Origin: a virus
Direction: 5' to 3' (one strand)
IMG/VR virus record: IMGVR_UViG_3300022752_000024
Span: 78,882 to 142,881 of that record
DNA: 64,000 bases
Shown here piece after piece: positions 681 through 13,339 of the stretch (the first letter of the stretch is position 1; each line of letters starts with the position of its first letter). The translations under genes were made by a program, and so were the position numbers. Below the pieces are notes generated by a model. It worked only from the letters and a program-made list of their open reading frames with translations. It had not been told where the DNA came from and made no database searches.

Positions 681-2755
681 GTCTTAGGCGTAACTTTTAC
701 CAAAATAGAATTTGGATCGTAAGGATCAACTGTAATTATTCTATTTAATGATGAAGAAATAATAGTTGTTGTTGGTTTAGCTGAAACTGTAAATTGTCCT
801 AATTCGTTATTTACCGCAAGAGGATTGAATCCGAGTAGAGTAATCACTCCTTCTTGGTAGTCAATTGTACCCGCATTAGGATTTAAAATTGTTTTTATTT
901 GATTATTATTATAATAATATGTTCTTAGTTTTCCATATCTACCTTGCAGAGTTACTATAGCACCAGCACCTTGACCTGTGGTGTCATTAGATTTTGCTGT
1001 TACTGTAGCTACTGCTGATGTATAGTTATTTCCAGAATTTGTTACAGTAATTGACGCTAGAGTTCCGTTTGGATTAATTTTTGATGTTGCGGTAGCTCCT
1101 GAACCATCACCCAAAATTGTAATTGTTGGAGCAAATTGATATTTGAATCCTGGGTTTATGACCGATACGGATTCAACACCTCCGGTTGATACTGGAACTT
1201 CTTCAATATAAACTAAGTCGATAGTGCTAGTTAAATTAGCAGGATCTCTAAATTTTAAACTCGGAGAACTATTTACTCCACTTAATAGAACTCCTCTCTG
1301 TAGAGGTGTTCCATAATATAATTTATAATCGCTAGGTGTAAATAAGTCTGGATAAAACTTTTTCTGTACTTGAATATTGATTTCATTTGCGATAATTGAT
1401 CTATCAACTGCTTGAATTTTATTAGATAAGTCAGTAGCAGAAAATGTTGAGTTGAAAGAGTTTAGTGTTGTCGCAGAAAAACTTGATATAGCTGATTTTA
1501 CATACAATTCTATTTGTGAAGCAGTTGATGTTGTTTTCTTTGGATCATACAAAACATTAGCGTTGATTTGTATATAGGCGTAATCTGGATCAACAATCGC
1601 AGGAGCAACCGTAAGAACAGAAATTGGTTTTAATACTTCATTAGTGATTCTTTGTTTTTGAACATCAGTTAAAGTGTATGCTCCAGCTGGCTTTAATGAA
1701 ATGAATACTTGTCCATACACCGGAGGATCATTTTCTTGTCCTCCCCAAACATTAATAGCATCAAAAGAAATACCTAATTTGTTTTGTTGAATTAGTGTAA
1801 TATAATCTTCTTTAGATACTGCCCGATTTTGTGCAGCATACGATTTTGGTGCTTGAAATTTAATTGAATCTATTGATTCTTTGGCTGCTCCAGTTGTTGC
1901 AGGAGATACTGAGTTGATTGTGGTGTTTGCAAAACCAGAAACTGGATCAAGTAAAACAAAACTATTTGCACTTGATGCCGAAGAACCTTCAGTAGAAATA
2001 TAGGATACTCTAACAATATTACCATCAAATAATGCCTTTCCTAATACTCCATCACCAAAATAGATTTCATAGTTACTATTCAGTCCTTCTTGTAAAAAAT
2101 AGACTAAACTTGATGAATTTAGTGCTAAAAAATCTGTAGCGTTATTATAAATCTGTGTAGAAGTATTTGTTCCAGATTGTTGCACCGATACTGTCAATGT
2201 TGTGGTATCAATATTCTGATCTGGAATTTCAAAAGTTGAACTAGGATTAGATAAAGTATCTACAGTAAAAGAATAATTTAATGGTGTTCCTTGTTTGATC
2301 GTAATATTATTAAATGTTGCTGTGTTATTGATTACATTTACTGTCGTAGAATCTGAAGTAACGAAGTTATAGTTGATTCCATTAATAGCTTCTGACACAA
2401 AACTAGTACCTTTAGGTAATGTTAGTGCTGAGTCAGTAACTTGATTAACTATTAAATTTATCTTTGCACTTGGCGCAATAGCCGATCTTGGAATATAATT
2501 TAATGTTTTTGCTTGAGATACAACAGAACTTCTTTGAAGTGCAGTATCTAAAAACATTTCATTACCAACCATGTTCAAATAGTATGCATTATATTGAGTA
2601 TTATATGCAAGAACATCAAGAAGAATAGACATGCCAGAACCGGAAAAATTATAGTCCTTAAATGTGTTCTGACTTCTTAGATAGTTAATTAGACTAGTTT
2701 TAACGTCTGCAAAATCTAAGTCTGCAAACTGAAATTGAGAATTGGCTCCAGCCAT
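677..2755 (-). CDS. 6: Baseplate wedge subunit gp6
   Basis: LDFADVKTSL..FKDYNFSGSGMSILLDVLAYNT, YEIYFGDGVLG and AQNRAVSKEDY motifs typical of T4-like gp6. Confidence 0.95.
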   Translation of the reverse strand: MAGANSQFQFADLDFADVKTSLINYLRSQNTFKDYNFSGSGMSILLDVLAYNTQYNAYYLNMVGNEMFLDTALQRSSVVSQAKTLNYIPRSAIAPSAKINLIVNQVTDSALTLPKGTSFVSEAINGINYNFVTSDSTTVNVINNTATFNNITIKQGTPLNYSFTVDTLSNPSSTFEIPDQNIDTTTLTVSVQQSGTNTSTQIYNNATDFLALNSSSLVYFLQEGLNSNYEIYFGDGVLGKALFDGNIVRVSYISTEGSSASSANSFVLLDPVSGFANTTINSVSPATTGAAKESIDSIKFQAPKSYAAQNRAVSKEDYITLIQQNKLGISFDAINVWGGQENDPPVYGQVFISLKPAGAYTLTDVQKQRITNEVLKPISVLTVAPAIVDPDYAYIQINANVLYDPKKTTSTASQIELYVKSAISSFSATTLNSFNSTFSATDLSNKIQAVDRSIIANEINIQVQKKFYPDLFTPSDYKLYYGTPLQRGVLLSGVNSSPSLKFRDPANLTSTIDLVYIEEVPVSTGGVESVSVINPGFKYQFAPTITILGDGSGATATSKINPNGTLASITVTNSGNNYTSAVATVTAKSNDTTGQGAGAIVTLQGRYGKLRTYYYNNNQIKTILNPNAGTIDYQEGVITLLGFNPLAVNNELGQFTVSAKPTTTIISSSLNRIITVDPYDPNSILVKVTPKT

Positions 2756-3147
2756 TATCTTGACCTCTCAAGAATTAGGTTAATTGATGTTGGTTCTGTG
2801 CTATTGCCGACAAAAAACTGCAACTCAACATAAAATGCATTTTGATCTTCTATTGACAAAACTTTTACTGAAATTAAATTGACTCTGGGTTCATAGTTTT
2901 TTATGACATTTCGTATTTCTGTCTCTAATGATGATGCAGTAATAGCAGTAGACGGTTCAAAGAGATATCCTTCTACGTTTGAACCTAGCCCTGGTTGAAA
3001 CAGTCTCTCATAGAAGTTTGTCAACAACAGATTTCTCATTGATCGAATAACTGCCTGTTCATCATAACTAATAGAAACATCACCTGTAACTGGATTACGG
3101 GTAAATGTTAAATCTAAATCTGAATAAATTTTTTGTAGTGTAGGCAT
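2755..3147 (-). CDS. 25: Baseplate wedge subunit gp25
   Basis: YSDLDLTF..NPVTGD..ERLFQPGLGS..NYEPRV; between gp5 and gp6. Confidence 0.95.
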   Translation of the reverse strand: MPTLQKIYSDLDLTFTRNPVTGDVSISYDEQAVIRSMRNLLLTNFYERLFQPGLGSNVEGYLFEPSTAITASSLETEIRNVIKNYEPRVNLISVKVLSIEDQNAFYVELQFFVGNSTEPTSINLILERSR

Positions 3148-3163
3148 CTCTTATTTATGACTG

Positions 3164-4135
3164 TTATTGTGGAGCACCTGTACTTCCACCTTGTGCATCC
3201 GGGTGTGTATGATTATCTAAGCTGATTCCGCCAGAAACTACATCTCCAGTAGCGGTTATTTTTCCGTTAACGCTCACATCACCAGTTACATTTACGTCAC
3301 CAGTTAAGTTGAAAGAACTGGCAACTGCGGTAACTTTGCTTGCTTTTAAATTAACGTTGCCTGATACTGTAATGCTACACGTACCTTGAATATCTATAAA
3401 ATCGTCACCTACAATAATCTCGTAATTCTTACCTAAAACTTTAGTAACTTTGCTACCATCTGGACGCATTTCAATATAAGTACCTGTTCTGTGTGCAAGA
3501 TTTACTCGTTCCGAATCAGGAGTATCGTCAAACTCGATTACATGACCCGACTCCGTTTCTTTTACATCATTATATGGAGGTACTGCATTATATGGTGAAG
3601 CGGGTTCGCTCCAAGATACTCCATCAGCAGTTGGAACATCTTTTGTTAATGATGCATTTCTACGACCAATAATGGTAGAACCAATGCCTTCATTTCTATA
3701 TAATCTACTTGTTGTAGGTTCTCCGACATACCTAGGATATCGAGTTGCCAAACCGCCAAATGGTTTAGGAGCTGCTGTTAATTCTGCACTTGATCTTGGA
3801 TCAGAGAAACCTTTTTGTGGATTATTTACGTATGGAGTAGGTATCCCAGGTAAAACACCAAAATATATAGGTACTTGACCTGAAGTACCATCGTAAAAGA
3901 AACCAATAACCCAATCACCTTCGACTGGTGTTGTGAATGTTTTTGAATTGTTGACAGGCAATACTGGTTGCGCCCACGGTAAATCAGCAGTAGGAATTAA
4001 TGTTTTATTTTCTGTGTGCCAACCAAATATTCGTATTTGACACCGACCTACATTTAACGGATCTTTTCTGTTTTCAACGACACCCGTCCACCAGATGAAT
4101 CCATTTAATCCTGCAAATATGGTATTCTCATTCAT
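3164..4135 (-). CDS. 5: Baseplate central spike gp5 (no lysozyme domain; C-terminal HxH apex)
   Basis: WWTGVVENRKDPLNVGRCQIRIFG OB-fold, ETESGHVIEFDDTP..ER motif, beta-helix repeats, ends LDNHTHPDAQGGSTGAPQ. Confidence 0.9.
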   Translation of the reverse strand: MNENTIFAGLNGFIWWTGVVENRKDPLNVGRCQIRIFGWHTENKTLIPTADLPWAQPVLPVNNSKTFTTPVEGDWVIGFFYDGTSGQVPIYFGVLPGIPTPYVNNPQKGFSDPRSSAELTAAPKPFGGLATRYPRYVGEPTTSRLYRNEGIGSTIIGRRNASLTKDVPTADGVSWSEPASPYNAVPPYNDVKETESGHVIEFDDTPDSERVNLAHRTGTYIEMRPDGSKVTKVLGKNYEIIVGDDFIDIQGTCSITVSGNVNLKASKVTAVASSFNLTGDVNVTGDVSVNGKITATGDVVSGGISLDNHTHPDAQGGSTGAPQ

Positions 4136-7446: not shown

Positions 7447-7454
7447 TATTTATA
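7447..7454 (-). promoter_or_regulatory. T4-type late promoter TATAAATA upstream of the gp48-gp7 operon
   Basis: Exact TATAAATA on the minus strand about 36 nt before the gp48 start. Confidence 0.8.
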
Positions 7455-7873
7455 TGGCATACTCTGGACGATTTAAACCTTCAAACCCACAAAAGTATAT
7501 AGGTGACTATAATAATGTCATTTACCGGTCATCATGGGAATGTAGAGTGATGAATTGGCTTGACAAAAATCCTGAAATATTACAATGGAGTTCTGAGGAA
7601 CTTGTCATTCCATACAAGTCACCAGTTGACGGAAAATTTCATAGGTACTTTCCAGACTTTACAGTAAAGACAAAAAACAAAACACTGGTTATTGAAATTA
7701 AACCAGAAAGAGAAAAAAAAGAACCTAAACCTCGTAGTAGAATTACAAAACAATACATTCAAGAAGTTGCTACCTATGGAATCAATCAAGCAAAATGGAA
7801 AGCAGCAACGGAATATTGTCTTGATAGAGGTTGGGAGTTCAAAGTTTTAACAGAAAAAGACCTAGGAATATGA
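7454..7873 (+). CDS. 4: Head completion nuclease gp4 (TnsA-like)
   Basis: YSGRFKPSNPQKYIGD..YRSSWE..WSSEE..HRYFPDF..IEIKP..NQAKWKAA. Confidence 0.92.
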   Translation: MAYSGRFKPSNPQKYIGDYNNVIYRSSWECRVMNWLDKNPEILQWSSEELVIPYKSPVDGKFHRYFPDFTVKTKNKTLVIEIKPEREKKEPKPRSRITKQYIQEVATYGINQAKWKAATEYCLDRGWEFKVLTEKDLGI

Positions 7874-8482: not shown

Positions 8483-9178
8483 ATGCCATCGTTAAACGAG
8501 TTCAAAGCCAGTTTTAAAACTGATTTTGCCAGACCAGCTAGGTTTAATGTGGAAATTCCACTTCCACTAAAACTTGTGGCATATTTAAATACAGCAAGAT
8601 TACTAACATTAAGATGCGAAAATGCTGAACTTCCAGGTAAAACTGTAGCCACAACAGATAGAAAAATTTATGGTCCTATCGAAAAGCAACCGTATCTAAC
8701 TACTTTTAATGACTCTACATTCACCTTCATTGTGAGTGACGACATGAAAGAGAAAAAGCTTTTTGATGCATGGATGGATTTAATTAATCCAAAAACCACA
8801 TTTGACCTAAATTACAAAGGTGACTACATTACACCAATTACTGTGAATCAGTATGATGTAACAAATAAATTATCTTACTCAGTTACAATGATTGATGCAT
8901 TTCCTGTTTCAGTAAACCAATTGGACTTAGATTGGAGTAATGATAACACTCATCATAAACTATCGGTAACCTTTGCATATTATACTTGGGAAAATAATTC
9001 AATTCAAAGCTTTGCACAGGACCTCGTCAATGCTGGAATCTCAACTGGAGTTGATATTGCAACAGAAGCACTTTCGAAATTTAATTTTAAATCACCATTC
9101 AGTCCACTTACTTCTGACACCGGAGGCGCCGTTTATGATATGAAAACTATCGCTAAAGGTTTTGAAGGAAAAAATTAA
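8483..9178 (+). CDS. Tail tube-like baseplate initiator (gp54/gp19 family)
   Basis: FARPARFNV, LRCENAELPG, FDAWMDLI, DAFPVSVNQLDLDW, LSVTFAY tube-fold motifs. Confidence 0.75.
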   Translation: MPSLNEFKASFKTDFARPARFNVEIPLPLKLVAYLNTARLLTLRCENAELPGKTVATTDRKIYGPIEKQPYLTTFNDSTFTFIVSDDMKEKKLFDAWMDLINPKTTFDLNYKGDYITPITVNQYDVTNKLSYSVTMIDAFPVSVNQLDLDWSNDNTHHKLSVTFAYYTWENNSIQSFAQDLVNAGISTGVDIATEALSKFNFKSPFSPLTSDTGGAVYDMKTIAKGFEGKN

Positions 9179-9195
9179 TATTATAGGAGATCATC

Positions 9196-9921
9196 ATGGG
9201 TTTGCCAAAAATAGATACACCAATTTACGAACTTGATTTGCCGTTGTCTAAAAAACATATTCGTTTCAGACCTTTTCTAGTAAAAGAACAAAGAAACTTA
9301 TTGATGGCTCTTGAAGCAGAAGATAATGACAGTATAGAGCAAAACATTAAACAAGTTTTGCATAATTGTACTTTGACTGAAGATATTGATATCGAAAAAC
9401 TTCCTGTTACAGATGTTGAATATTATTTTCTAAATCTTCGTGCCCGGTCAGTCGGAGAAGTTGCAGAAAACAAATATAGATGCAACAATGAGGTAGACGG
9501 AAAAGAATGCGGTAGCATAATGGAAGTGAATGTGAATTTGCTGGACATCAAAGTAGATATGCCAGAAAATATTACAGATACCATTAAGTTGTCAAATAAT
9601 ATGACAGTTAAACTAAAGTATCCTGAGTTTTCTATAGTTAAAGAAGCAAAAGATACTACGGATATTGGAGAGTTTGCAATTAAAATGATTGCAAGTAGTA
9701 TTGAATATATTCACGATGGAGAACAATTCTATTATGCATCTGAAGTGGATCAGAATGAACTTGTTGAATTTATAGATTCTCTCAATCAACAACAGTTTGT
9801 AAAACTAGAAGAATTCTTCAACAATCTACCTAAGTTGCAAAAGACTGTAGATTTTACTTGTGGTAAATGCGAGTTCAATCACAAACTAGAACTTGAAGGA
9901 CTCAACAATTTTTTCGTCTAA
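9196..9921 (+). CDS. 26: Baseplate hub assembly protein, gp26 family
   Basis: MGLPKIDTPIYELDLP..RFRPFLVKE..LRARSVGE; Cys pairs; ends EGLNNFFV. Confidence 0.85.
   Translation: MGLPKIDTPIYELDLPLSKKHIRFRPFLVKEQRNLLMALEAEDNDSIEQNIKQVLHNCTLTEDIDIEKLPVTDVEYYFLNLRARSVGEVAENKYRCNNEVDGKECGSIMEVNVNLLDIKVDMPENITDTIKLSNNMTVKLKYPEFSIVKEAKDTTDIGEFAIKMIASSIEYIHDGEQFYYASEVDQNELVEFIDSLNQQQFVKLEEFFNNLPKLQKTVDFTCGKCEFNHKLELEGLNNFFV
9909..9915 (+). other. Candidate -1 ribosomal frameshift slippery heptamer T-TTT-TTC
   Basis: X-XXY-YYZ heptamer phased with the gp26 codons, one sense codon before the stop; the -1 frame is open into the gp51-like ORF. Confidence 0.65.
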
Positions 9922-9971
9922 CCTTTCGTCATGATTCATTGCAGAATTATTATAGAACAAATTTTGCATTG

Positions 9972-10112
9972 ATGCAGCATCACAAATATAGTCTTGCGGA
10001 ACTTGAGAATATGCTACCGTGGGAGAGAGATATTTACGTGAATCTCTTAATTCAACACATTGAAGAAGAAAATGAAAAAATAAAACAAAGAAACGCAGAA
10101 AGAAGAAAGTAG
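9972..10112 (+). CDS. 51: Baseplate hub assembly catalyst, short gp51 family (probably expressed as a frameshift extension of gp26)
   Basis: Below the ORF-track cut-off: MQHHKYSLAELENMLPWERDIYVNLLIQHIEEENEKIKQRNAERRK. Confidence 0.85.
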   Translation: MQHHKYSLAELENMLPWERDIYVNLLIQHIEEENEKIKQRNAERRK

Positions 10113-11807
10113 ATGATACCATTACTAGGTAATAAATCTAGACCAGAACCATCAGAAGAATTAACAAACAATGCAGGCGGATTGATGAGTAAATTCAATC
10201 CGTCTAATTTGGTTCGAGGTTTGGTTGGAGGTAAACGATCAGGTTCTTCTATGGGTGATATGATTGGAACAGATAGACAGAAATTAAAATCTGCCGTAAG
10301 TCCAAAAAACAAAGATCCAGAACTAACAACGGTTGGAGCATCCGATATCTCTCCTGTTCGTAAAGGTGATTCTGTTGCAAACGTGGCTGCAAAAGTATAT
10401 AACCTAATTAACGGAAAATATGATGAAAGAAAAAAAGAAATTAAACTCGAAAATAAGCTGACACAAGAGTTAGCAATAAAAAAAGAAAAAAGACATACGG
10501 AACTTTTGAGAGCATTGAGCGAGAGACCTAAGCAAAAAGTAACTGAGGTAAAGGTACCCAAAAAAGAAGAACCCAAACCAACTCCTCAAGCAGCACCTAA
10601 ACCTAGTGCTCCTCAAGCGGCTGCTCCTAAGCCAACAACACCACAAGCTGCTGCTCCTAAACCAGCATCACAGGCAGCAGCCCCAAAACCTGGTGCTCCT
10701 CAAGCGGCTGCTCCAAAACCTACTACACCACAAGCACCTCAGGCAGCAGCACCTAAACCAACAACACCACAAGCGGCCGCTCCTAAACCAACAACACCAC
10801 AAGCACCACAAGCGGCTGCTCCAAAACCTGCGGCACCTACGGCTGCACCTGCTGCTCCAGCAGTTCCTTCGGCTGCTCCTATTACACAGGCAGCACCTGC
10901 GGTATCTACCGCAACTCAAGTAGCCGTAGGTACAGCATTAGTAGCAGCATCGTCATATTCTTTTGCGGCAGGACCTCTTGCTGAAAATATTGTTGCTCAT
11001 GAAAGTAAAGTTTCTTCTCCATTGCGTAGAGATGGAAAAAAAATTACAACTAAATGGAAAAATGATAGCGAATATAATGCATATAATAAAGGAACTAAAA
11101 TTGCTGCCGATTTTGATGAAAAAGGAGAATCTGTAATTGATTTCTCTAAGATGACAATAGAAGAATATTTGCAGAGAGGTTCTATTAAAGATCCTAAAAA
11201 TCCTAAAAAGATATTTGCTATGGGTAGATATCAAATCATTCCAGACACAATGAAATTTTTGGTTAAGAATTTAAATATAGATCCAAAAACAACATATCTG
11301 ACAAAAGAAACTCAAGATTATCTTTTCATGGCTGGAATCATAGGAACAAAAAGAAAAAAAGTAAAAGCGTATATTGATGGAGATGCAAAAGTAACTAGAG
11401 ATGAAGCCATATTGGAATTATCACAAGAATTTGCCTCAATTGGTGTACCATATGATACGAAATATAAAGGAAAAGTAATAAAAAAAGGACAATCGTATTA
11501 TGGTCAAAACACAAAATCTGGTTTTGCTTTAAATCCTCCAGAAGAAGTTGGTAAAGCTTTAGATGCCGAAAGAGAAAGACAAACGAAACTAAAACAAAAA
11601 TCAACACCATCGAATGTGCCAGGTCAAGGAAAAAAATTAGGTGAAGCATCAACAGAAAATGCAGATTTAAAGAAAACAGCATCATCAGGACAATCCACAA
11701 TAATCATGAATAATAACACTACAGTAGCAGCAATGTCACCAACAAATCAAACTATGGTAGCACCAAAATCTGATGCATCGAAATTCGTACAAGGAGTTGG
11801 AGCATAA
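10113..11807 (+). CDS. Tape-measure/hub-like virion protein with Pro/Ala linker and lysozyme-like domain
   Basis: Follows gp26/gp51; coiled N-terminus; IVAHES..YNAYN..MTIEE..AMGRYQIIPDT..TQDYL..LSQEFASI resembles lysozyme-like muramidases. Confidence 0.6.
   Translation: MIPLLGNKSRPEPSEELTNNAGGLMSKFNPSNLVRGLVGGKRSGSSMGDMIGTDRQKLKSAVSPKNKDPELTTVGASDISPVRKGDSVANVAAKVYNLINGKYDERKKEIKLENKLTQELAIKKEKRHTELLRALSERPKQKVTEVKVPKKEEPKPTPQAAPKPSAPQAAAPKPTTPQAAAPKPASQAAAPKPGAPQAAAPKPTTPQAPQAAAPKPTTPQAAAPKPTTPQAPQAAAPKPAAPTAAPAAPAVPSAAPITQAAPAVSTATQVAVGTALVAASSYSFAAGPLAENIVAHESKVSSPLRRDGKKITTKWKNDSEYNAYNKGTKIAADFDEKGESVIDFSKMTIEEYLQRGSIKDPKNPKKIFAMGRYQIIPDTMKFLVKNLNIDPKTTYLTKETQDYLFMAGIIGTKRKKVKAYIDGDAKVTRDEAILELSQEFASIGVPYDTKYKGKVIKKGQSYYGQNTKSGFALNPPEEVGKALDAERERQTKLKQKSTPSNVPGQGKKLGEASTENADLKKTASSGQSTIIMNNNTTVAAMSPTNQTMVAPKSDASKFVQGVGA
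10584..10829 (+). repeat. Intragenic tandem repeat encoding 8 (P)QAA(A)PKP units
   Basis: Visible in DNA and protein, with synonymous variation between units. Confidence 0.9.
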
Positions 11808-13339
11808 TGGAAAAGGCATATCAATATCAACAAGCAAGAAGAATTGGAAAAATATCCATTTCAGACCTTATTGCTAAAAATATTATTGAAGGTGAAAGTA
11901 TTCCTGGTGCTATAGGAAAATCAATCTCACAAAAATTCAGGGCAAGAGCAACTAGATTTAAAGAGAAATTTGATCTTTTAAACATTGCAAGTATGCTTGT
12001 GGGTAGAAGCAGATTAGGTACTGCTATTCTTGGTAAATTGATGGGTCGTAGTGGTGAAGATATTGCATACTTTGCTAAAAAAGGAAGCAGAGCTGGTGGC
12101 GCAAAAAATCCATTTTATACAAGAATTGGTGCTGGTTCAAGAGAGCCAGTAAAACGAAACGATAATGTAGCGGATGTATTTGCTAAAGTATACAACTTGA
12201 TGGAGCGAACGTATGAGCAAGAAAAACGTTTAAAGGAAATACAAAGTAATTTTAAAGAAGAACAAGACATAGAAGATGAAAGACGCCATGAAGAATTACT
12301 AGAAGCAATCACTGGTAAAAAATCTACTAAGCCTAAGGCGACAAAAATAAAAGAAAAGAAAGAAGAAGGCGGTGGTATTTTTGATACGATCAAGAAGATG
12401 TTTGCTGATCTAGTATCATCTTTGAGTCCATTCATTAATTTAGCTAAAACAATTATGACTGCTTTTGGTAATGGATTTTTGAGTGTGATTGCAAGACTTG
12501 GAGCATTCTTATTAAGTCCTGTTGGTATTGCCATACTAGGACTATTGACTGTTGCTGCACTAGGAAAATATATTTTCGATCTTTGGTTACAAAGAGATGA
12601 AGCTCAAACACAAAAAGCTTTAGCTAGTGGATATGGAGGTGAAGCAGAATATGAATCAATGAAAGAAAGTCAAGAAAAAGAAGCAGAAAGAGCAAAGATA
12701 ATTAAAAAATTCAATAAGGATAAGAAAGGTGATATCACCAATGCTACCTTACCTGAACTGAATGCCTTGCGTGATGATATTCTGCAATATGGTAATCCTA
12801 GATTTCTATTAAAGAGTAATCCTACACCATTAATCAAGGAGACGTCAAAAAAACTTGATTCTATTGAAGCAGAAATTAAAAAGAGAAAAGAAAGTCAGTC
12901 AACTACTACACCTATACCTTCAGTAGCATCACCTGCTGCAATGAGTGAGAAGACTGCTGCACCTATACCTTCAGTAGCAACTCCTGCTGCTATGAGTAAC
13001 CAAACTACTATGTCATCAAGTGCAGAGCCACAATCTAAACCATTACCTGCAGGTGTCAATCTTCAAGATAATGAAAGCAGACCATCTAAACCTATTCCTG
13101 TTTCAACTGTGCCTTCTATTCCACCAGTAGAAAATATAATGAAGCAGAATTTTGAATTAAATCTTCAAGAGAATACTGGCGGTATGGCTGGTGCACCTAT
13201 AGTTATCAATAAAAATAATGTTGGTGGTTTAAATGTTGGAAATGGTGATACCGGAACTATAACTGGTGCTGCATCTGTTCGTGATTCTCCATTAGGTGAC
13301 TTGATTGGTAGATTGCAGAAAAGAGCCTCTGTAATGTAA
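11807..13339 (+). CDS. Tape-measure-like virion protein, paralog of the upstream gene
   Basis: Shares the block PVKRNDNVADVFAKVYNLM..ERRHEELLEAI with 10113..11807; central hydrophobic helix; low-complexity C-terminus. Confidence 0.55.
   Translation: MEKAYQYQQARRIGKISISDLIAKNIIEGESIPGAIGKSISQKFRARATRFKEKFDLLNIASMLVGRSRLGTAILGKLMGRSGEDIAYFAKKGSRAGGAKNPFYTRIGAGSREPVKRNDNVADVFAKVYNLMERTYEQEKRLKEIQSNFKEEQDIEDERRHEELLEAITGKKSTKPKATKIKEKKEEGGGIFDTIKKMFADLVSSLSPFINLAKTIMTAFGNGFLSVIARLGAFLLSPVGIAILGLLTVAALGKYIFDLWLQRDEAQTQKALASGYGGEAEYESMKESQEKEAERAKIIKKFNKDKKGDITNATLPELNALRDDILQYGNPRFLLKSNPTPLIKETSKKLDSIEAEIKKRKESQSTTTPIPSVASPAAMSEKTAAPIPSVATPAAMSNQTTMSSSAEPQSKPLPAGVNLQDNESRPSKPIPVSTVPSIPPVENIMKQNFELNLQENTGGMAGAPIVINKNNVGGLNVGNGDTGTITGAASVRDSPLGDLIGRLQKRASVM

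Follow-up and report, generated by a model that had tools for sequence, protein, structure and literature searches.

The gp26-like gene in the stretch of viral DNA analysed here ends in a slippery run of thymines just ahead of its stop codon, and the reading frame one base back stays open into a small gp51-like ORF, which raises the question of whether this locus encodes two separate proteins or a short and a long form of one. The window, that is, the whole stretch of 64,000 nucleotides that was analysed, spans positions 78,882 to 142,881 of the IMG/VR record IMGVR_UViG_3300022752_000024, and its relevant features are collected in Table 1. The 3′ end of the gp26-like ORF reads AAT (9907-9909), TTT, TTC (9913-9915), GTC and TAA (9919-9921). 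The −1 frame, entered at position 9915, has 65 sense codons before its TAG codon (10110-10112), and the small ORF that lies inside it has a TTG start at 9939 and an ATG at 9972. A preliminary description of the sequence had pointed to the end of the ORF, the phase of the heptamer and the open −1 frame; all three are borne out by the sequence, and the translation it gave for the −1 frame is correct. The long ORFs of the window, whose G+C content is 35.5%, total 17,310 codons and contain only four in-phase T_TTT_TTY heptamers, and the open −1 frame that follows measures 65 codons at the gp26 site versus 0-7 at the other three. A single site among four with a long open −1 frame is therefore more than chance.

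Table 1. Features of the gp26/gp51 locus and its surroundings in the window, and tail homologues in Ackermannviridae-type relatives (coordinates of the latter refer to their own loci)
Feature	Position	Strand	Remarks
Tail-tube-like gene	8483..9178	+	phrog_45 'tail tube', 1.4e-39; context only
gp26-like ORF, short chaperone form (TAC-N), 241 aa	9196..9921	+	TAA stop codon included
Shine-Dalgarno-like GAAGGA, possible stimulator (inferred)	9895..9900	+	8 nt between GAAGGA and heptamer
Slippery heptamer T_TTT_TTC, proposed −1 shift site	9909..9915	+	X_XXY_YYZ phase in gp26 frame
−1 frame tail, C-terminal extension of the proposed 305-aa long form (TAC-NC)	9915..10112	+	small 'gp51' in annotation of relatives
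564-aa ORF, candidate tape-measure or lytic tail protein	10113..11807	+	phrog_37890, function unknown
510-aa ORF, candidate tape-measure protein	11807..13339	+	language-model look-alikes
Tail homologue, Salmonella phage STML-13-1 (L088)	about 3225-3420		Ackermannviridae-type
Tail homologue, Vibrio phage VAP7 (L092)	about 2250-2441		Ackermannviridae-type
Tail homologue, Vibrio phage K369 (L097)	about 2060-2290		Ackermannviridae-type

Profile searches gave clear family assignments for both parts of the locus. The gp26-like ORF matches the Pfam family PF12322 (T4_baseplate) at 4.3e-60, with its residues 9-240 covering profile positions 2-218 of 219, and phrog_150 at 2.2e-64 (profile positions 5-232 of 282). 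The small ORF in the −1 tail matches phrog_634, 'baseplate hub assembly catalyst', at 7.4e-27, and it also matches the end of phrog_150 (positions 242-278 of 282), so that some members of phrog_150 have both parts in one chain. A search of the −1 tail against Pfam and NCBIfam returned no match, even at E = 10. Within the genome record of 142,881 bases, which is estimated to be 86% complete, PF12322 is matched by the gp26-like ORF only; given this single gp26-family gene, a long form could, in the available sequence, therefore be made only via recoding.

We propose that a programmed −1 ribosomal frameshift makes both a 241-aa and a 305-aa protein from the gp26-like gene, and on comparative sequence evidence we regard this reading as very probable. 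Most ribosomes translating the gene would stop at the TAA codon and release the 241-aa protein. A minority would shift with two Phe-tRNAs on UUU UUC (9910-9915), moving back one base onto U_UUU_U; the next codon would then be CGU (9915-9917), and these ribosomes would read the 65 codons up to the TAG, yielding a 305-aa protein that has the same first 240 residues followed by the conserved tail. In long-tailed phages such as lambda, the counterpart of the pair would be the two tail assembly chaperones, one short and one long (G/GT); in T4 it would be gp26 (short) and gp51 (long), hub assembly chaperones that are needed for forming the central hub around the tape-measure protein. We infer that the shift is made by the ribosome rather than during transcription, that only a minority of ribosomes make it, and that the products act as chaperones in the window phage. 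The preliminary description had likewise read the tiny gp51 as a frameshift tail, and the comparison of junctions and of T4-type gp51 proteins described below strongly supports it.

To examine the junction across relatives, we assembled 79 IMG/VR loci with gp26-like relatives (39-87% protein identity) and three cyanophage isolates. This sample contains 77 complete junctions, and 56 distinct junctions were used for alignment. In all 77 complete junctions, T_TTT_TTC or T_TTT_TTT is present in phase, 0-2 codons before the gp26 stop, with T_TTT_TTT replacing T_TTT_TTC in three loci. The octamer TTTTTTCG, which is TTTTTTC plus the next G, is invariant in the distinct junctions (56/56). Regardless of the residue it encodes (Asn, Ser, Gly or Asp), the codon ahead of the heptamer has T as its last base, and the position of the 0-frame stop, one codon past the heptamer, is conserved in nearly every junction. 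The base 3′ of the octamer is free to vary: its changes are silent in the −1 frame, where the codon is CGN (Arg), and alter the residue in the 0 frame, which can be V, G, D, E or A. An open −1 frame of 60-67 codons follows in every complete junction except one truncated contig, and blastn identified the junction as the best conserved DNA in the whole segment. Heptamer and −1 phase, which the preliminary description had singled out as the features to compare, are thus the same throughout the relatives, and none of them has a stop in the intervening −1 frame.

The same fusion protein would also result from transcriptional slippage, with the RNA polymerase inserting an extra U as it copies the thymines. 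The site is a homopolymer, T6 in the window and T7-T8 in pf16, Melnitz and the loci L080-L082, and no downstream stimulatory RNA structure was detected, both of which would suit such a mechanism. Runs of about nine are usually required for transcriptional slippage to be efficient, however, and most junctions by far keep a shorter run, of exactly six. In addition, the invariant C and G after the run and the constant X_XXY_YYZ phase are the signature of tandem tRNA slippage, although the argument from phase is not decisive because the phase is tied to a conserved Phe-Phe. We consider transcriptional slippage improbable and favor a shift by the ribosome.

For such a ribosomal shift, possible stimulatory elements were sought on both sides of the heptamer. 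RNAalifold yielded no consensus for a conserved downstream RNA structure in the 56 sequences, and the shuffle z-scores, with a median of +0.89 over these sequences and values of −0.9 to −1.8 for the window RNA 3′ of the slip site, are not significant; any stimulation would therefore come from the heptamer itself, from the nearby stop and perhaps from an upstream Shine-Dalgarno-like element. To our knowledge, lambda G/GT likewise has no downstream RNA structure at its slip site. In this respect the window site differs from stimulated −1 frameshifts of the dnaX type, which have a downstream stem-loop or pseudoknot. The dnaX type also has a Shine-Dalgarno-like element about 10 nt upstream, and a comparable GGAGG lies about 10 nt upstream of the heptamer in 25 of the 55 relatives and an AGGA in 14/55, in sequences that are mutually related and hence not independent. 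The Glu codon at this site is GAG in 27/54 cases versus 76/394 in the tail ORFs, which amounts to an enrichment. A role of the upstream GGAGG/AGGA as stimulator is only suggestive, since the motif overlaps a conserved Glu-Gly-Leu and since the sequences are not independent.

Where the conservation of the tail begins bears on another explanation, that the locus holds two independent genes and that the small gp51-like ORF starts on its own, at TTG 9939 or ATG 9972 and perhaps by re-initiation after the gp26 stop, without any fusion product. Public annotation would agree with this: the GenBank and RefSeq phage records examined, those from 2025 included, show the tail as a separate tiny 'gp51' or leave it unannotated, and never as a joined CDS. 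The ATG at 9972, moreover, is present in the window and kept in 37 of 55 relatives. In the other 18/55, however, the position is occupied by ATA, ATT, TTA, ACA or GTG, and in 16/55 codon 32 is the first ATG of the tail frame. The tail is conserved in amino-acid sequence from the first codons past the slip onward (Arg, followed by Leu, Ile or Val), far ahead of ATG 9972, as the preliminary description had foreseen for the sequence ahead of the annotated gp51 start. The codon-position periodicity likewise speaks against independent genes: it follows the gp26 frame upstream of the heptamer and switches to the tail frame at precisely that site. In the stretch from the gp26 stop to ATG 9972 (window 9924-9971), the entropies at the three codon positions of the tail frame are 0.56/0.31/1.10, matching those inside the annotated small ORF (0.53/0.16/1.12). 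With conservation running from the slip site and no conserved start codon, independent initiation therefore cannot explain the conserved features. An independent gene would, moreover, need neither the invariant heptamer nor its phase nor the silent T that precedes it, and in T4-type gp51 the tail is found fused to a gp26 domain. We regard independent genes as highly improbable, even more so than transcriptional slippage.

The chance that a sequencing or assembly error in the homopolymer conceals one continuous ORF is practically negligible: a few metagenome proteins do have the gp26 domain continuing into the tail without a frame change (P0001, P0003 and P0009, mostly singletons), but the two-frame layout occurs in all sampled IMG/VR contigs as well as in isolates from several labs and platforms, and the 0-frame stop one codon past the heptamer is conserved. 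A naturally fused lineage was also considered and rejected, as only 14 matches were found in a large protein collection, mostly singletons or truncated, and these look like assembly variants. Metagenome proteins P0001, P0003, P0004, P0007 and P0009 contain the last part of the gp26 domain joined to the tail in a single frame; P0004 (119 aa) represents 31 member sequences, and its match to isolate genomes falls into two segments that lie in different frames.

The tail that would be appended by the proposed −1 ribosomal frameshift is widespread. A tblastn search with the tail found 569 phage records, in 510 of which at least 80% of the tail length is matched, and nearly all of the matches listed begin at the first residues of the tail. 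The tail-bearing phages recovered in this way include cyanophages, KVP40-like Vibrio phages and phages of Aeromonas, Sinorhizobium, Pelagibacter, Methylophilales and Pseudomonas. An in-phase T_TTT_TTC or T_TTT_TTT together with an open −1 tail was found at each of the five further junctions read, those of KVP40, pf16, Melnitz, Aeromonas G2 and VmeM-32.

In Ackermannviridae-type relatives, the gp26-like gene is likewise followed by a tail homologue, with an MPWH/APWQ motif, in the −1 frame (Table 1). No X_XXY_YYZ heptamer is present in the three loci L088, L092 and L097; the only T-rich sites in the interval from the stop of the −1 frame to that of the 0 frame are ATT TTC, GTT TTT and CTT TTC. 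These sites suggest slippage of a single tRNA, like that at the Pakpunavirus GTTTTT motif. For Pakpunavirus and Andersonviridae, PMC12846349 describes a −1 frameshift in the tail assembly chaperone, with a poly-T slip motif (GTTTTT) located close to where TAC-N ends. The argument made there is of the same kind as the one made for the window, namely a −1 frame that is open in all alleles; the protein family, in contrast, is a different one, and the motif is shorter than the window heptamer and closer to the non-canonical Ackermannviridae-type sites than to T_TTT_TTC.

The comparison with T4 offers a view of the same two products encoded in another way. Leiman et al. 2010 (PMC3004832, Table 2) class T4 gp26 (208 aa) and gp51 (249 aa) as chaperones of hub assembly. 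Genes 26 and 51 are divergent neighbours both in T4 and in Aes012. In Aes012 gp51 (249 aa), residues 2-198 match PF12322 at 2e-45, and the tblastn search with the tail matches the C-terminus of this protein at 1e-4. For T4 gp51, residues 6-185 align with the gp26-like profile at 8.5e-6, and residues 203-243 align with the tail profile in hhalign at 9.5e-5 with a probability of 59%. When the conceptual transframe products were aligned with T4 and Aes012 gp51 using MAFFT, they proved colinear and free of gaps at the junction, and the end of T4 gp26 fell two residues past the point where the short form shifts or ends. On these alignments, T4-type gp51 is a gp26 paralogue with the same tail fused in frame. 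The preliminary description had supposed that the two products come from separate genes in T4 and had proposed aligning the fusion to T4 gp51; both the composition of gp51, a gp26-family domain plus the tail, and its gap-free colinearity agree with that supposition.

The window ORF and T4 gp26 thus belong to the same family (PF12322), and T4-type gp51 is colinear with the predicted fusion, whereas T4 has two divergently transcribed paralogous genes and the window phage a single gene for both forms. T4 gp26 also differs in having no slippery heptamer, in contrast to the T_TTT_TTC of the window gene: in T4-type gp26 genes non-slippery codons encode the equivalent residues, namely GAG TTC TTT (T4 and a Klebsiella phage) or GAA TTT GTT (an Acinetobacter phage). 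The phages with a separate gp51 gene, T4 (L083, positions 3090-3118), L095 and L096, have the non-slippery TTC TTT or TTT GTT, and these gp26 ends form a natural negative control for selection on the heptamer.

We also modelled the gp26-like protein with AF2 (pLDDT 86) and compared the model with known structures. For residues 1-95, the top three VIA-align matches were 3fgx, YqbN (3klu) and the HK97 tail assembly chaperone (2ob9), with Z scores of 7.6, 7.5 and 6.3, all below the tool's caution level of 8, where such scores are common; the next match had a Z score of 4.6. The superposition with 2ob9 has an rmsd of 4.2 over 85 residues. Foldseek with the same model found no PDB match at E <= 0.001, and a profile search with the gp26-like alignment found none among PDB sequences. 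The modest VIA-align scores fit the assignment of the gp26-like protein as a chaperone. Four nearly invariant cysteines are found at residues 96, 105, 222 and 225, and residues 88-237 of the model show weak structural matches to the zinc ribbons of DnaJ, ZPR1 and ZitP, which suggest a zinc-binding domain in the modelled protein. Cysteine pairs occur at similar places in T4 gp26 and gp51.

A −1 frameshift conserved in tail assembly chaperone genes, with lambda G/GT and P2 E/E+E′ among the examples, was reportedly described by Xu, Hendrix and Duda in Mol Cell in 2004. The window locus resembles the lambda G/GT type in its slippery heptamer, invariant in the 56 related junctions, in its open and coding −1 frame, and in the lack of a conserved start of its own for the tail (ATG in 37/55). 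The best structural matches of the N-terminal domain, among them the HK97 tail assembly chaperone and YqbN (Z 6.3-7.6), may point to a further likeness. In contrast, the window protein has no detectable sequence similarity to chaperones of the lambda G/GT and P2 E/E+E′ type, it is larger (241 aa) and contains an extra domain with the four conserved cysteines, and T_TTT_TTC takes the place of G_GGA_AAG as the heptamer.

The short and long forms would chaperone the downstream tape-measure-like proteins in hub/tube initiation. The preliminary description had placed the pair directly upstream of tape-measure-like genes; the locus does adjoin two long ORFs, the first of which has its start codon (10113) directly after the stop codon of the tail, but these are candidate tape-measure genes only, as neither matches a known tape-measure family. 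A Pfam and NCBIfam search of both ORFs returned no match, even at E = 10, and tblastn of the 510-aa ORF against the phage collection returned none either. By language-model features, the nearest named clusters of the 510-aa ORF are those of PF25671 (T4_Tape_measure), with a score of 0.92 and 155-157 shared features, and its identity as a tape-measure protein is a lead only. The 564-aa and 510-aa ORFs have about 130 N-terminal residues in common (32% identity, 1e-17) and could represent a tape-measure or ejection gene pair that arose by duplication. The 564-aa ORF contains a Pro/Ala-rich repeat region, and its C-terminal part is what matches phrog_37890; the 510-aa ORF has a hydrophobic stretch.

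In the lambda G/GT type, the gene order is tube, chaperone, tape measure; the two chaperone forms of that type are both produced, the long one as the lesser product, and they bind the tape-measure protein and do not occur in virions. The window has a tube-like gene upstream of the gp26-like ORF, assigned by its phrog_45 match and with only a weak Pfam match to gp19 (0.0097), and downstream it has the two ORFs as candidates only. Farther upstream, a gp4-like head completion gene (7454-7873) matches phrog_218 at 1.4e-60 and also the TnsA-like endonuclease N-terminal domain PF08722 at 2e-22.

Frameshifting in this gene family appears to have been reported before. Vladimirov, Gautam and Davidson (Virology 2022, 566:9-15, PMID 34826709) are cited in PMC12846349 for poly-T −1 signals in T4-like TAC-N genes and in PMC10885494 for T4-like phages that have a short gene and a long fused gene and no frameshifting. 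As cited in these two papers, the 2022 study concerns the same gene family, T4 gp26/gp51, and both statements match what we find in the window. To judge from the citing passages, the gp26/gp51 frameshift in T4-like phages thus appears to be already described and our result to be a rediscovery, so that the preliminary description, which took the feature as undescribed for T4-like phages, appears to be wrong on this one point. Our literature search on the gp26/gp51 frameshift found no description other than this one. Because the point appears already published, the value of the present analysis lies in confirmation and annotation, not in discovery.

It is conceivable, though we doubt it, that the 2022 paper covers only the identity of gp26/gp51 as chaperones, the two-gene solution of T4 and a general note on poly-T signals. 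In that case, the details given here would be undescribed, namely the invariant TTTTTTCG with the 0-frame stop one codon later, the enriched GGAGG about 10 nt upstream and the lack of a downstream structure, as would the route of the Ackermannviridae-type phages to the same tail via shorter, non-canonical sites (ATT TTC, GTT TTT and CTT TTC).

For annotation, the tail in public records could be corrected to a joined CDS. In a precomputed Pfam column, tail-bearing proteins are tagged PF28602, and a curated model of the tail therefore seems to exist already, although our own Pfam search, in which this family may be absent, gave no such match for the tail. For the biology of these phages, a programmed −1 ribosomal frameshift in the gp26-like gene would bring the T4-like phages under the rule for long-tailed phages, with a short and a long tail assembly chaperone from one locus, and T4 itself would be a lineage in which gene duplication took over from recoding.
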